Assembly (NCBI GenBank): GCA_000146465.1
Contig: CP001946.1
Reading direction: 5' to 3' (one strand)
DNA length: 64,000 nt
Part shown: one piece after another, positions 41,617 through 46,673 of the stretch
Layout of the letters: each line of letters opens with the position of its first letter
Numbering within the stretch: position 1 is the stretch's first letter
The notes under the pieces: generated by a model
What the model saw: only the letters and a program-made list of their open reading frames with translations
Databases searched by the model: none
What the model was told of the DNA's origin: nothing
Program-made: the position numbers and the translations under genes

Positions 41617-42126
41617 ATGAAAAACCTATTTGACAAGCTGGAAATAAGCTCTTCGTGCTGTCTCGGAAAGAAAGACAAAAAAGATATAAACAGGCAGCTA
41701 GGCCGAGAGATATTGGGCAAGACCGAAGGATATATGCTTCATAAGTGTAGAAATAGAGCATCTGTGATATCTCGGGAGGGATTGGCAATTTTGTTCTGTT
41801 TCAACAAGAAGTACTTTCCAACAATACAATATCTTGAAAAACACAGCAACGAAGAGTTTCATGAAGTATTTTTAGACGATGGGGCGCTTGGGCCTTTAAG
41901 TAGAGGAGCAGATGTCATGATCCCGGGTATACTTAAATACAAAGATCTGGTGAAAGGAGACTTTGAAGAAGGAGATAGTGTTGTTATACGGATTCTTGGG
42001 AAGTCTATTGTGGGTATTGGAGAGGCGGTTGTAAGCTTTAAAGACATGGCCAAGAAGGGTAACGGAATAGGGATTGAAGTATATCACCGAATTGGAGATG
42101 AGCTATACAACGAGAAATGTCTCTAG
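41617..42126 (+). CDS. TMA20: MCT-1/Tma20 translation reinitiation/recycling factor (DUF1947 + PUA)
   Basis: Aligns to MCT-1: LDDGALGPLSRGADVMIPGI and the PUA C-terminus KKGNGIGIEVYHRIGDELY. Confidence 0.85.
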   Translation: MKNLFDKLEISSSCCLGKKDKKDINRQLGREILGKTEGYMLHKCRNRASVISREGLAILFCFNKKYFPTIQYLEKHSNEEFHEVFLDDGALGPLSRGADVMIPGILKYKDLVKGDFEEGDSVVIRILGKSIVGIGEAVVSFKDMAKKGNGIGIEVYHRIGDELYNEKCL

Positions 42127-42191: not shown

Positions 42192-42310
42192 AGTTGCGGC
42201 CATATCCACGGAAAAGCACCGGAACTCGTCAGATCTCCGCAGTTAAGCCTGTGCGAGCCCGGATAGTACTGAGGCGGGAGACCACTCGGGAATCCCGGGT
42301 GCTGCAACTT
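42192..42310 (+). rRNA. 5S ribosomal RNA
   Basis: AGTTGCGGCCATATCCACGG...GTTAAGC...GAGTACTG...GGGAGACCAC..GGGAATCCCGGGTGCTGCAACT matches the eukaryotic 5S consensus along its whole length (about 119 nt). Confidence 0.9.
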
Positions 42311-42384: not shown

Positions 42385-43479
42385 TTATTTACTGAAGGAT
42401 CGAGTATCTGCATTAACAACCTCTGTAAATGTGTATCCAGGAGACACCTTGCAGTTTATAAGCACACTCCCAGGAAGGATTGTGGCTCCCATTCCAATTA
42501 TAGAGCCTTCAATGTGTGATCCATGTCCAATCGAGACACTGGACATTACAATTGATGATATTATTTTTGACTCTTCCCCGATATCACAATCCCTTCCAAT
42601 TATCGAGTCAAGAAGAAGCACATTTCCTGTCTTTGTGTTGTTGTCAATCACATTACTTAGGTCCTTGAGGTTATACTTCTTCACATAGTCTTTTATGAAT
42701 TTGGCATTTGATTCGCTTGTTTTAAGTTTCTTATCGGTACTAATTGAATGTCTTTTGAGCAGAGCGTTTACGCTTAAATAATTACTTATGCTTCTTATCT
42801 GATAGATGTAACTCTTCCCAGGCCTATGAATTCCAACAGGATTTGTCAAGGCCAGGTTCTTCACAACATTTGGAAGAAGATCATGCTTAAAGCTGAAATA
42901 ATCCGGCTTGAACATCTTGAACAGCGAAGTCTTGAGCATGTAGAACTGGAGGATGTCAAGATCTTTCGTAAGAGTTAGACCCTTCTTCAATAGATGGAAG
43001 GGAATCTCTTCGTTACAGTCGTTTGAATAAAACATCAAGTCGTCCCCTTTGTATCCTAGAATAGATGTTTCTGATACAGCATTTCCTAGAATCACCATGA
43101 GTGCTTTCTTACTGTCGAAGTAGTGAAATGCCATTGCCTGAATGTCCATGTTGGTTACAATATCTCCTTTGCACACAAGAACATCATTAGATGTTATCCT
43201 TGGATATAAACTTAAGAGAGACGCAACTGTTCCATCGTATGTGTCGATCCCCACATATTCTACCGGTACATCGATATCTTCTCCCAAAGCACTCATGAGA
43301 TCTTCCTTTTCCTCATTCAGCCCAACCACAAAAAACCTTTTTGAGACGCTCTTTAGGCACTCCATTGTATGTAGAATCATTGGGCTATTCATGATTGGGA
43401 GGCATGCCTTTGAAAACTTCTCATTCACTATTGGAAACAGCTCTGTCCCAGGACCTATCAAGATTATTATCTCAAACAT
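42385..43479 (-). CDS. nucleotidyltransferase + left-handed beta-helix protein: GDP-mannose pyrophosphorylase (Psa1/GMPP)-like, alternatively eIF2B-gamma-like
   Basis: The N-terminal NTP-transferase fold has PMILHTMECL (compare Psa1 PMILHQIEAL), but the catalytic loop reads IGPGTELFPI instead of GGxGTRLRPLT. C-terminal hexapeptide repeats (IGRDCDIGEESKIISSIVMSSVSIGHGSHIEGSIIGMGATI). Length 364 aa is Psa1-like. Track start is TTG. The first ATG is 43477-43479. Confidence 0.7.
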   Translation of the reverse strand: MFEIIILIGPGTELFPIVNEKFSKACLPIMNSPMILHTMECLKSVSKRFFVVGLNEEKEDLMSALGEDIDVPVEYVGIDTYDGTVASLLSLYPRITSNDVLVCKGDIVTNMDIQAMAFHYFDSKKALMVILGNAVSETSILGYKGDDLMFYSNDCNEEIPFHLLKKGLTLTKDLDILQFYMLKTSLFKMFKPDYFSFKHDLLPNVVKNLALTNPVGIHRPGKSYIYQIRSISNYLSVNALLKRHSISTDKKLKTSESNAKFIKDYVKKYNLKDLSNVIDNNTKTGNVLLLDSIIGRDCDIGEESKIISSIVMSSVSIGHGSHIEGSIIGMGATILPGSVLINCKVSPGYTFTEVVNADTRSFSK

Positions 43480-43555: not shown

Positions 43556-44782
43556 ATGTGTAGGAAGACTAAGGGAGTGTTCCTTTTGTTCTTTTCTGTA
43601 AGACTTGGCATAATGCTTTGGGAGGTTAGATTTCAGCACCTCTATTCCTCATATCTGGAAAGAGGACTGCCATGGTTTAAGCCAGATACTTTGACAGGAA
43701 AGATGGCTACTGATGGAAGATTGTTTGGCGATGCACAGCTCAAAGCTTCAAACCTTAGGCTCAAAAGCCTGTATAAAGAGATGAAAGCTCTTGTGCTGTA
43801 CATGGGAGTTGTATTCTTGATATTCAACAACAAGATCCGAAGCAAAGCAATCAGGTTGTTGGGATTTCTTTGGATACCCAATTCAGAAGTAATGTTCCTA
43901 TTACTTCTGATTTCCACAATTACCTTTATAGAGAAACTCTGTGGTGTAGGGCTCACACTAGTAGAAGGCACGTGCAGTGTGAGATATATAGAGTATCCGT
44001 TTAATATGGTAGTTTTATTTCTTGTAGAGCTCCCACTCACAATATGCCTCATAATAAAGCTTTTTGAGCTCCTGAGGAAAAAGACTATGGCGACATTCTA
44101 TGCTGCCTTTGTAATAAGCAACTTATTCAACACCTTTTGGAATGCAAGGATAGATAAGAACAGGCTAACCAAGGTTCCTCTTGAGAAGTTTCCGTCGAAA
44201 CTACAAGCGATGCTTAAGTCCGAGGGACTGGAAGAATCGATCTACAAAGTTAAAGGCACCCAAGAGAAAAAAAATGCATCTCTGATTGGATTTAGCAGCT
44301 TTAAAAGAATTGAAATAACCGGAGACTTTGACAAAGATCCAAAAAAACTATATCCTGTCCTGTTCCATGAAATAGGCCATTCGATTGATAACATTATACT
44401 AAAGAAAAAGATTATTATACACATAATAGTGGGATGCGAGGCGTTAGCATTTTGGTTGATTTATGTAAAAGGAAGCAAGGCTTTTGGATTTTCAGACATA
44501 ACGTCCGAGTCATTTGTCTTGATCATTCTTGCCATGTATCTGGTTCTTGGAAGGACTTTGATCCTTATCCCTTTAAATATGTATGTGCAGCGTTCGGAGT
44601 TATTTGCCGATGAAATTGCATTGGCAAACGGACATGGAAAAGAGCTTTCTCAAACACTGTTTGACATGGCTTTAGAGCACAGCACAGTTATTGATACGAC
44701 ATATCTTTTCAATGCGATAGCATCGTTACATCCTATTGTTAGAGAAAGAATCGATAGATGTGGAAGTCTCCTGCAGAAATAG
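43556..44782 (+). CDS. STE24: Ste24-family (M48A) integral-membrane zinc metalloprotease, paralogue A
   Basis: Multi-TM. NASLIGFSSFKRIEITGDF aligns to ZMPSTE24 NAYFYGFFKNKRIVLFDTL. Zinc site HEIGHS (HExxH). Downstream glutamate in QRSELFADEIA (compare FEFQADAFA). C-terminus LHPIVRERI (compare SHPPLLERL). Confidence 0.75.
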   Translation: MCRKTKGVFLLFFSVRLGIMLWEVRFQHLYSSYLERGLPWFKPDTLTGKMATDGRLFGDAQLKASNLRLKSLYKEMKALVLYMGVVFLIFNNKIRSKAIRLLGFLWIPNSEVMFLLLLISTITFIEKLCGVGLTLVEGTCSVRYIEYPFNMVVLFLVELPLTICLIIKLFELLRKKTMATFYAAFVISNLFNTFWNARIDKNRLTKVPLEKFPSKLQAMLKSEGLEESIYKVKGTQEKKNASLIGFSSFKRIEITGDFDKDPKKLYPVLFHEIGHSIDNIILKKKIIIHIIVGCEALAFWLIYVKGSKAFGFSDITSESFVLIILAMYLVLGRTLILIPLNMYVQRSELFADEIALANGHGKELSQTLFDMALEHSTVIDTTYLFNAIASLHPIVRERIDRCGSLLQK

Positions 44783-44807: not shown

Positions 44808-45398
44808 ATGAATGGAATTGAAGACAGCAATCCATTTGAAGAGCTTAAAGAATATGAAGTGGTTGTGGCATACGACGATGAAAACAAGAAGCTTTCCAAC
44901 GTAATGAAGGATAGAGGGCTTGATTATGTCGAGGTGAATCTGGCGGTTTCTGAGAAGCTCAGGACAGAATTTATGAAACATTTTAGAGTTTCTGAACTCC
45001 CTGTGCTCTTGATTGAAGGAATACCTGCTCTTGACGATCCAAGTGAAAGGATTAAGGAGTATATTGAGAGAAAAGAGAAAAAATCCTTAGAGAAAATTCA
45101 GAGTGTGATTGATCCTAACAAGATTACTCTTTTCATTAAGGGATCCCCCGAACATCCAAGATGTGGATTCACCAAGTCCCTTATAGAAATTTTGTATGGC
45201 TTAGGAGTAACAAGGGATAAAATAGAATACCTTGATGTTCTTTCAGATGAGGATATTAGGGAGAGACTAAAAGAAATAAACAGATGGCCCACTTTTCCAC
45301 AGGTATACATTAGGGGCCGATTCATAGGGGGGTTGGATATTGTCCGAAAGATGTCTGAAAAAGGAAAGCTTAAAGATGAACTCTCAGGAATAATCTGA
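44808..45398 (+). CDS. monothiol glutaredoxin, Grx3/Grx4 (PICOT)-type: Trx-like + CGFS Grx domain
   Basis: The C-terminal Grx domain KGSPEHPRCGFTKSLIEILYGLGV...WPTFPQVYIRGRFIGGLDIV carries a CGFS active site. The N-terminal half is thioredoxin-like. Confidence 0.85.
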   Translation: MNGIEDSNPFEELKEYEVVVAYDDENKKLSNVMKDRGLDYVEVNLAVSEKLRTEFMKHFRVSELPVLLIEGIPALDDPSERIKEYIERKEKKSLEKIQSVIDPNKITLFIKGSPEHPRCGFTKSLIEILYGLGVTRDKIEYLDVLSDEDIRERLKEINRWPTFPQVYIRGRFIGGLDIVRKMSEKGKLKDELSGII

Positions 45399-45458: not shown

Positions 45459-46673
45459 ATGAAGTACCTTTCTCGAGGGATGTTCTATTTGTTCTTCATG
45501 CTTACGTATCTTGCCCAGATGATAGAGGTCTTGAATGTATTGATCACCAAAAGTCATCTGGACTCTGGACAAACAGGAATTGAAGAAGGACTAGCAACAA
45601 ACGAAATGGCAAAGAAAGATCAGGACTATGCCCCCAAAGCCAAGAAAGCAATAGGAAAAAGAAACAAGGAGCTACTTGAGGATATAGTGGCACACACTAT
45701 CCATTTTACCGCCAACATCTTGTTCTTTACTGGGATTGGAAAATCGTTTAGCATGAGAATACTTGGCAAGATCTTTGGGGAGATATTTGACCTTGAGATT
45801 GTGTTCCTTACAGCCGTAATTTCGATGATTTCCCTTGATGGTTTTATAGAGTATATTGTCTGCTTGGTATATAAGAATCCGTCGCTAGAAATGATTTTCT
45901 TGTGGTGTTTCTTTGCAATTGTATTTGTTATCCCAACATGTATCCTCATTTCTATAAAGCTCTTGAGGATCTTTGGATCCAGTTTCGTAATTTCCTGTTA
46001 TCTCTCCTACTTCATTCTGGAGATATCTGATATCTTATCTGTATCCAATGTGGATTTTAGTAAGATGGAGAAGGTGCCATCAAATATATTTTCGGAGAAT
46101 GTCCAGGTTCTTATGAAGGACAGAGGGCTTTCGGATTCTATCTATAGAGAAATAAATCCGGGAAAGAACGTCAATGCAGCTCTTATAGGGATTGGCGGTG
46201 CTGAGAGGATTGAAATCTACGGAAAAGTCGAGAATATGAACGATGGACAGCTGGAATCTATATTGATTCATGAAGTAGGACATTCCTATGATGGAAGTTT
46301 GGTCAAGAAGATATCGGTCTTTTTGATTCTTCTGGGTTTTGAAATGATGCTTTTAGTATTCTTGTACGATAACATAGCAAAAGAATTCATATGGAACAAT
46401 ATTTCGAAGGAGGGGTCATTTGTAGTGCTTGTATGCCTTTATTTTGCATCAATCCGTCCATGGTTGTTTATTCTGTATAACCTTACGTCTCAAAGTGCAG
46501 AGATGTACGCAGACCTTTTAACAAAACAATATAACTACAATGGAAAGCTGGCAGATACTCTATACAAGATATCTGTGGACTCCTTTGATTTCCTGGCACC
46601 ATCCTGGCTGTACAACAGCTTAAACTCGTTACATCCCAGTATAATGAACAGGATTGAATATCTAAGCAACTAA
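45459..46673 (+). CDS. STE24: Ste24-family (M48A) integral-membrane zinc metalloprotease, paralogue B
   Basis: Same architecture as paralogue A: NAALIGIGGAERIEIYGKV, HEVGHS, QSAEMYADLLT and LHPSIMNRIEYL. Track start at 45411 is TTG. The first ATG is 45459. Confidence 0.75.
   Translation: MKYLSRGMFYLFFMLTYLAQMIEVLNVLITKSHLDSGQTGIEEGLATNEMAKKDQDYAPKAKKAIGKRNKELLEDIVAHTIHFTANILFFTGIGKSFSMRILGKIFGEIFDLEIVFLTAVISMISLDGFIEYIVCLVYKNPSLEMIFLWCFFAIVFVIPTCILISIKLLRIFGSSFVISCYLSYFILEISDILSVSNVDFSKMEKVPSNIFSENVQVLMKDRGLSDSIYREINPGKNVNAALIGIGGAERIEIYGKVENMNDGQLESILIHEVGHSYDGSLVKKISVFLILLGFEMMLLVFLYDNIAKEFIWNNISKEGSFVVLVCLYFASIRPWLFILYNLTSQSAEMYADLLTKQYNYNGKLADTLYKISVDSFDFLAPSWLYNSLNSLHPSIMNRIEYLSN

Follow-up and report, generated by a model that had tools for sequence, protein, structure and literature searches.

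A nucleotidyltransferase-like gene with a degenerate signature loop in Encephalitozoon intestinalis very probably encodes eIF2B subunit gamma

The gene at positions 42385-43479 (minus strand) of a 64-kb stretch of microsporidian DNA from contig CP001946.1 (~40% G+C, genes closely packed), the whole of which is referred to here as the window, raises the question of how to understand a protein that is built like a sugar-nucleotide enzyme and carries a nucleotide-binding signature loop fallen out of the canonical pattern. The original prediction framed the protein as resembling GDP-mannose pyrophosphorylase (GMPP) and offered three readings, namely a GMPPA-like pseudoenzyme, an extremely diverged gamma subunit of eIF2B, and a catalytically altered GMPP. 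eIF2B serves eIF2 as its guanine-nucleotide exchange factor (GEF), and the fold that joins a pyrophosphorylase-like (PL) domain to a left-handed beta-helix (LbH) is descended from sugar-1-phosphate nucleotidyltransferases. Based on the evidence presented here, the second reading is the correct one: the locus is very probably an ordinary orthologue of eIF2B-gamma (GCD1/EIF2B3), in agreement with GenBank and UniRef, where it is correctly annotated already, and the assignment as such is known.

The open reading frame (ORF) extends from ATG to TAA over 364 codons and is assigned as the complete coding sequence of the gamma subunit (364 aa plus stop) from the reading frame itself, from identity to an annotated protein and from profile matches to solved gamma chains. 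For Encephalitozoon intestinalis ATCC 50506, NCBI lists a protein identical over the full length (100%) under the name 'putative translation initiation factor E2B gamma subunit', and the E. cuniculi orthologue (82% identity) is eIF2B subunit gamma in UniRef. Nine orthologues at 50-84% identity are found in E. hellem, E. cuniculi, two Ordospora species and further assemblies. The protein begins with MFEIIILIGPGTELFPIVNEKFSKACLPIMNSPMILHTMECL. Its ATG lies at 43479, and an in-frame stop is located 16 codons upstream. Given that no ATG lies between the two and that the signature loop is situated downstream of the start, a re-read start that would bring back a canonical GGxGTRL loop, envisaged earlier as a way to dissolve the question, is excluded. 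Among the orthologue models, P0004 (E. cuniculi), P0007 and P0008 (Ordospora pajunii) carry N-terminal extensions of 8-33 residues that are not conserved in other species and look like mis-called start codons.

The general build that had suggested a GMPP is real in all three of its elements, these being the size of 364 aa, the PMILH block (PMILHTMECL, beginning at aa 33) and the C-terminal hexapeptide beta-helix. The PL domain, Rossmann-like and non-catalytic, comprises approximately aa 1-250 (42730..43479, minus strand) and is recognized by Pfam as NTP_transferase at aa 4-141 (6e-7, above cut-off). The LbH domain covers approximately aa 272-364 (42388..42666, minus strand); it is delineated by Pfam matches to LbH_EIF2B at aa 277-340 (6e-10), Hexapep_GlmU and Hexapep, together with the beta-helix strands of the AF2 model. 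In the Pfam scan there is no W2/HEAT domain, and the protein stops at aa 364 directly after the LbH. The AF2 model computed from 136 sequences reaches a pLDDT of 95.5; from the 9 close orthologues only, the value is 44.

Family placement by sequence profiles is consistent at every depth of comparison. The single sequence searched against the PDB finds human gamma at 1.7e-11, a GMPP at 3.7e-4 and GMPPA at 1.3e-3, and for the profile built on 9 orthologues the leading four matches are without exception gamma chains (8e-17 to 5e-11), followed by epsilon (5e-10), GMPPA (6e-6) and human GMPPB (0.11). When the profile is broadened to 36 microsporidian homologues, the gamma subunits of S. pombe (1.6e-48, over the full length), human (3e-45) and yeast (5e-39) stand before epsilon (5e-35), GMPPB-type proteins (9e-24 to 2.5e-17) and GMPPA (5e-13). 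The combined profile of 136 sequences, by which the retrieved family is labelled, matches gamma at 1e-126. Profile-profile alignment with hhalign, done against reference sets of similar size taken from PDB alignments (3 gamma, 3 epsilon, 4 GMPPB, 2 GMPPA), gives the Encephalitozoon/Ordospora profile a score of 162.3 with gamma compared to 86.1 with epsilon, 86.3 with GMPPB and 86.4 with GMPPA; for the profile of all microsporidia the corresponding scores are 245.8, 186.0, 136.6 and 111.6. An exhaustive hidden Markov model search of 1.84 billion representative proteins yields 2642 matches, the first of which to show a canonical GGxGTRLRPLT loop is P0119 (6.5e-16). All proteins in better ranks are microsporidian or of the LPKALLPVANKP type, with short microsporidian-type proteins grading into eukaryotic proteins of 430-500 aa that possess the LPKALLPVANKPMI motif. 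In pairwise phmmer against PDB-derived references, gamma is best for 145 of the 166 retrieved proteins. A word-indexed homology search started from the 36-sequence profile brought up only microsporidian proteins and a few prokaryotic ones, without named epsilon or GMPP references among them.

The neighbour-joining tree (60 sequences, 353 trimmed columns, 200 bootstraps) places the microsporidian clade within the gamma clade, to which the subunits of human, fission yeast and budding yeast belong, with epsilon as the sister group and GMPPA/B far off, together with prokaryotic enzymes. Monophyly of the microsporidian proteins is recovered in 200/200 bootstraps, as is the group of microsporidia, gamma and epsilon to the exclusion of GMPPA/B; the microsporidia join GMPP in 0/200. 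The yeast Psa1 and human GMPPA queries were entered by hand; in the tree, GMPPA is represented by the sequence of 7d72_A, and Psa1 by the hand-entered sequence, checked only by its match at the level of GMPPB (485 bits). Judged from these sequences, the tree firmly rejects both GMPP readings. The original prediction had itself named clustering within eIF2B-gamma as the finding that would settle the matter, and since the protein nests there in this tree, the pseudoenzyme question dissolves.

The proposal of a GMPPA-like pseudoenzyme, which would bind GDP-mannose and exert feedback inhibition on a separate catalytic GMPP, draws on the rank of the Arabidopsis GMPPA KONJAC as second-best reference for the Encephalitozoon sequences in pairwise phmmer (33 bits vs 47 for gamma). 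The residues by which GMPPA is known argue against it. The hallmark loop GGPxKGTRFRPLS (GGPQKGTRFRPLS), which has gained two residues and keeps the Arg, is absent and the E. intestinalis loop is one residue shorter than that of GMPPB, not longer; the motifs EKP and W-x-x-I-K of the GDP-mannose site, kept in the GMPPA references, are missing from the alignment; and the LbH contains no insertion of the type of the extended C-terminal loop of GMPPA before the protein ends at aa 364. Moreover, the segment between the 'EKP' and 'INAG' strands, compact in GMPPs, is taken up by an insertion that the alignment shows for eIF2B gamma and epsilon alone. Considered along with a profile E-value 35 orders worse than that of gamma, the hhalign score of 86 as opposed to 162, and the bootstrap result, this makes a GMPPA-like regulator highly improbable.

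A GMPP that is altered yet still active, feeding O-mannosylation, is the other reading from sugar metabolism, and we give it practically no chance. It can refer to the nucleotidyltransferase core, in which Lys24, Gly83-Thr84 and Asp106 are all kept, and to the need for the pathway in an organism that encodes a phosphomannomutase at 62560-63543 (plus strand; Pfam PMM 7.5e-80), correctly reported before as lying 19 kb away (19.1 kb). However, both Arg of the loop are lost, an alignment to four GMPPB references shows neither of the sugar-phosphate motifs F-V-E-K-P and G-F-W-M-D-x-G-x-P in the protein, and human GMPPB attains only 0.11 against the orthologue profile. The need for GDP-mannose, advanced earlier as an argument on this locus, turns out to have no bearing on an eIF2B-gamma gene. 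A phylogenomic study of fungal nucleotide-sugar enzymes (PMC8092308) reports that microsporidia possess GDP-Man, UDP-Glc and UDP-GlcNAc pyrophosphorylases. In its supplementary Newick tree, there are three genes per Encephalitozoon species: Eint_030170 adjoins yeast YKL035W and YHL012W, Eint_111680 is a second gene, and Eint_110560 (E. cuniculi ECU11_0690) stands between yeast PSA1 (YDL055C) and S. pombe SPBC13G1.02, being assigned to the GMPP part by its place in the Newick text rather than by parsing of the whole tree. GCD1 and GCD6 are missing from this tree, as is any Encephalitozoon gene of chromosome 5. Because Eint_110560 stands beside PSA1 and a chromosome-5 gene is absent from the tree, the GDP-mannose supply of E. 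intestinalis is most likely covered by this different gene on chromosome 11. The window contains no second PL-LbH gene and no second GMPP. With profiles, profile-profile scores, tree and motifs all placing the protein outside GMPPA/B, the two readings from sugar metabolism and the GMPP-like framing behind them are abandoned.

The distinction between gamma and epsilon within eIF2B relies on a small set of diagnostic residues. The codon of Lys24 (43408..43410, minus strand) aligns with K66 of yeast eIF2B-gamma, where epsilon has Arg, and that of Asp106 (43162..43164, minus strand) aligns with yeast D173 and with the metal/nucleotide Asp of GMPP. According to Kershaw et al. (PMC8633983), gamma preserves the Lys and Asp with which GMPP binds nucleotide (yeast K66, D173), epsilon typically carries Arg in place of the Lys, and GTP binding to the gamma-epsilon subcomplex has been reported. 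All 9 close orthologues keep Lys24, and the position is Lys in 30/41 microsporidian and 88/95 other homologues; the position of Asp106 is Asp in 40/41 and 92/95, respectively. All three epsilon references show PR where gamma has PK, a DS-x-x-x-RF loop and no G-T motif, and the E. intestinalis protein has G-P-G-T, K24 and G83-T84, as in gamma.

The signature loop IGPGTELFPI (aa 8-17; 43429..43458, minus strand), with E13 in place of the canonical Arg, was at the center of the original prediction, according to which the Arg and the Leu/Pro positions were lost. The first part holds, as GGxGTRLRPLT is indeed replaced and both Arg are swapped (E13, F15), with one Gly missing and the further changes of L to I17 and T to V18; the second part does not, for Leu14 and Pro16 are retained in the alignment. 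Across the nine Encephalitozoon/Ordospora orthologues, at 50-84% identity, the pattern ILIGPGxExFPIVN is invariant, and for this reason the loop is understood to be under selection and not decaying. Compared to GMPPB it is one residue shorter, just as in the gamma subunits of S. pombe (AG-FGNSLYPL) and S. cerevisiae (CG-KGSNLAPF). No Arg is present in the S. pombe loop (AGFGNSLYPLT) or in that of yeast Gcd1, which reads FCGKGSNLAPFT. The 'degenerate' loop is the normal state for the non-enzymatic eIF2B-gamma family.

Several observations weigh against the assignment to gamma. The grouping of microsporidia with gamma to the exclusion of epsilon is recovered in only 122/200 bootstraps (61%), so that on these sequences the split between the two subunits appears to be only moderately resolved. 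In pairwise phmmer, epsilon is the best reference for 11/166 retrieved proteins, and several fast-evolving microsporidian homologues match marginally better with epsilon. The loop Arg is retained in 59/95 non-microsporidian gamma-like proteins; among the 41 microsporidian homologues, Arg is outside the five commonest residues at the position and Glu or Asp occupies it in 25/41, from which it follows that the change of Arg to Glu/Asp is a feature of the lineage and not a universal trait of gamma. In the literature searched, there are no experimental data on any microsporidian eIF2B, and publications on GDP-mannose, mannose-1-phosphate or eIF2B in Encephalitozoon and microsporidia hold nothing specific to the E. 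intestinalis eIF2B-gamma gene. Finally, a separate W2-bearing epsilon and the alpha, beta and delta subunits are presumed partners, the analysis having covered 64 kb of the genome.

The moderate split and the pairwise matches with epsilon provide the room for a reduced eIF2B with a gamma/epsilon-like subunit, which would be a truncated epsilon without W2 or else a lone PL-LbH protein whose homodimer replaces the gamma-epsilon pair. A separate epsilon gene is presumed, with the broad profile of microsporidia epsilon comes second (5e-35; hhalign 186), and E. cuniculi is without eIF2alpha kinases (PMC2684119), which makes some simplification of eIF2B conceivable. The proposal is nonetheless very unlikely in our judgment: G-P-G-T, K24 and G83-T84 are gamma-like where the epsilon references differ, gamma is ahead of epsilon in every profile comparison, the microsporidia fall with epsilon in only 3/200 bootstraps, and the length and domain content are the same as in gamma.

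As an eIF2B-gamma of the compact form that is typical of Microsporidia (364 aa), the protein would be expected, by homology, to pair through both of its domains with the N-terminal half of epsilon to give a catalytic gamma-epsilon subcomplex, which in turn would place the C-terminal GEF domain of epsilon on eIF2-GDP. The ancestral active site would then perform no chemistry and represent at most a pocket, lined with K24 and D106, for the sensing of nucleotides, with GTP binding suggested from the homologous subunits. Should the yeast-type GTP sensing (PMC8633983) be real, the residue counts, with the loop Arg given up and the Lys and Asp of the pocket kept, might suggest that microsporidian gamma has a remodelled pocket, with ligand binding altered or absent; we consider this doubtful. 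If true, a remodelled gamma pocket would matter in parasites that are without eIF2alpha kinases. The loss of the loop Arg in microsporidian gamma, taken together with the lack of these kinases in E. cuniculi (PMC2684119), leaves a modest possibility that these parasites control eIF2B in a simplified way.

The surroundings of the gene confirm a further detail noted earlier, the adjoining 5S rRNA gene. It is located at 42192..42310 on the plus strand, convergent with the gamma ORF and 74 nt beyond its stop, and is the only Rfam match in the window (RF00001, 96.8 bits). This lone 5S gene (also L003 4526-4644; L001 4170-4288) is convergent between eIF2B-gamma and a PUA-domain gene, and Ordospora colligata shows it in the same position, wherefore the dispersed 5S locus is regarded as old, conserved synteny. 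The gene on its other side (41617-42126, plus strand) encodes a PUA-domain protein of 169 aa, for which a precomputed annotation also lists PUA_eIF2D and which may be a re-initiation factor of the MCT-1/eIF2D type; if so, the occurrence of two translation-initiation genes around the 5S is probably a coincidence. Upstream of gamma, two Peptidase_M48 paralogues of 408 and 404 aa (43556-44782 and 45459-46673) flank a glutaredoxin gene (44808-45398), all on the plus strand, in an arrangement conserved in Ordospora. The first of the paralogues gives a weak Pfam match (5e-6) despite its HEIGH motif. For the phosphomannomutase gene, the longest ORF that opens with an ATG has 327 aa, and the Pfam PMM domain starts only at aa 98; the ORF is probably over-extended and its true start an internal Met.

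The significance of the locus beyond its correct annotation is small. A practical lesson is that eukaryotic pyrophosphorylase-like proteins with a broken GGxGTR loop should be compared with eIF2B gamma and epsilon before they are called pseudoenzymes of sugar metabolism. Additionally, the microsporidian eIF2B-gamma homologues (P0011-P0045, P0160-P0164) are very short, at ~330-400 aa, and these ~40 proteins mark out the smallest core of a gamma subunit and the pocket residues that persist under extreme reduction.

Regarding known systems, the closest analogy exists with the eIF2B-gamma subunits of solved structure (S. pombe Tif223, 5b04_E; human EIF2B3, 6caj_J; S. cerevisiae Gcd1, 6i3m_I), which align over the full length and consist of the same PL and LbH domains with no further domain. 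They have in common with the E. intestinalis protein both residues of the proposed GTP pocket (Lys and Asp) as well as the eIF2B insertion in the PL domain, and their signature loop is likewise shortened and variable, without a catalytic requirement upon it. The differences are that the E. intestinalis protein is ~90-210 residues shorter (364 aa vs 452 in human and 578 in yeast), with surface insertions of the PL domain trimmed, that identity to the solved gamma chains amounts to only 15-19%, and that the loop Arg kept in human gamma is Glu in E. intestinalis. The N-terminal half of eIF2B-epsilon (6i3m_G, 5b04_I, 6caj_B) has the same PL and LbH fold and the same eIF2B-type insertion, but epsilon is a protein of ~700 aa with a C-terminal W2/HEAT GEF domain, DS..RF instead of the glycine loop and PR for PK.

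GMPPA, including KONJAC (7d72_A, 8yre_A), offers the analogy of a pseudoenzyme regulator, in this case of GMPPB, that is likewise a non-catalytic descendant of nucleotidyltransferases built from PL and LbH; its expanded, Arg-containing loop, its EKP and sugar-site motifs and its C-terminal loop insertion have no counterpart in the E. intestinalis protein. GMPPB, represented by Psa1 and VTC1 (7d72_K, 8yre_D), is similar in length (360 vs 364 aa), in the fold and in the PMILH block. It differs by the canonical GGxGTRLRPLT, EKP and GFWMDxGxP motifs, all absent from the E. intestinalis protein, and by a profile E-value 25-31 orders worse than that of gamma.
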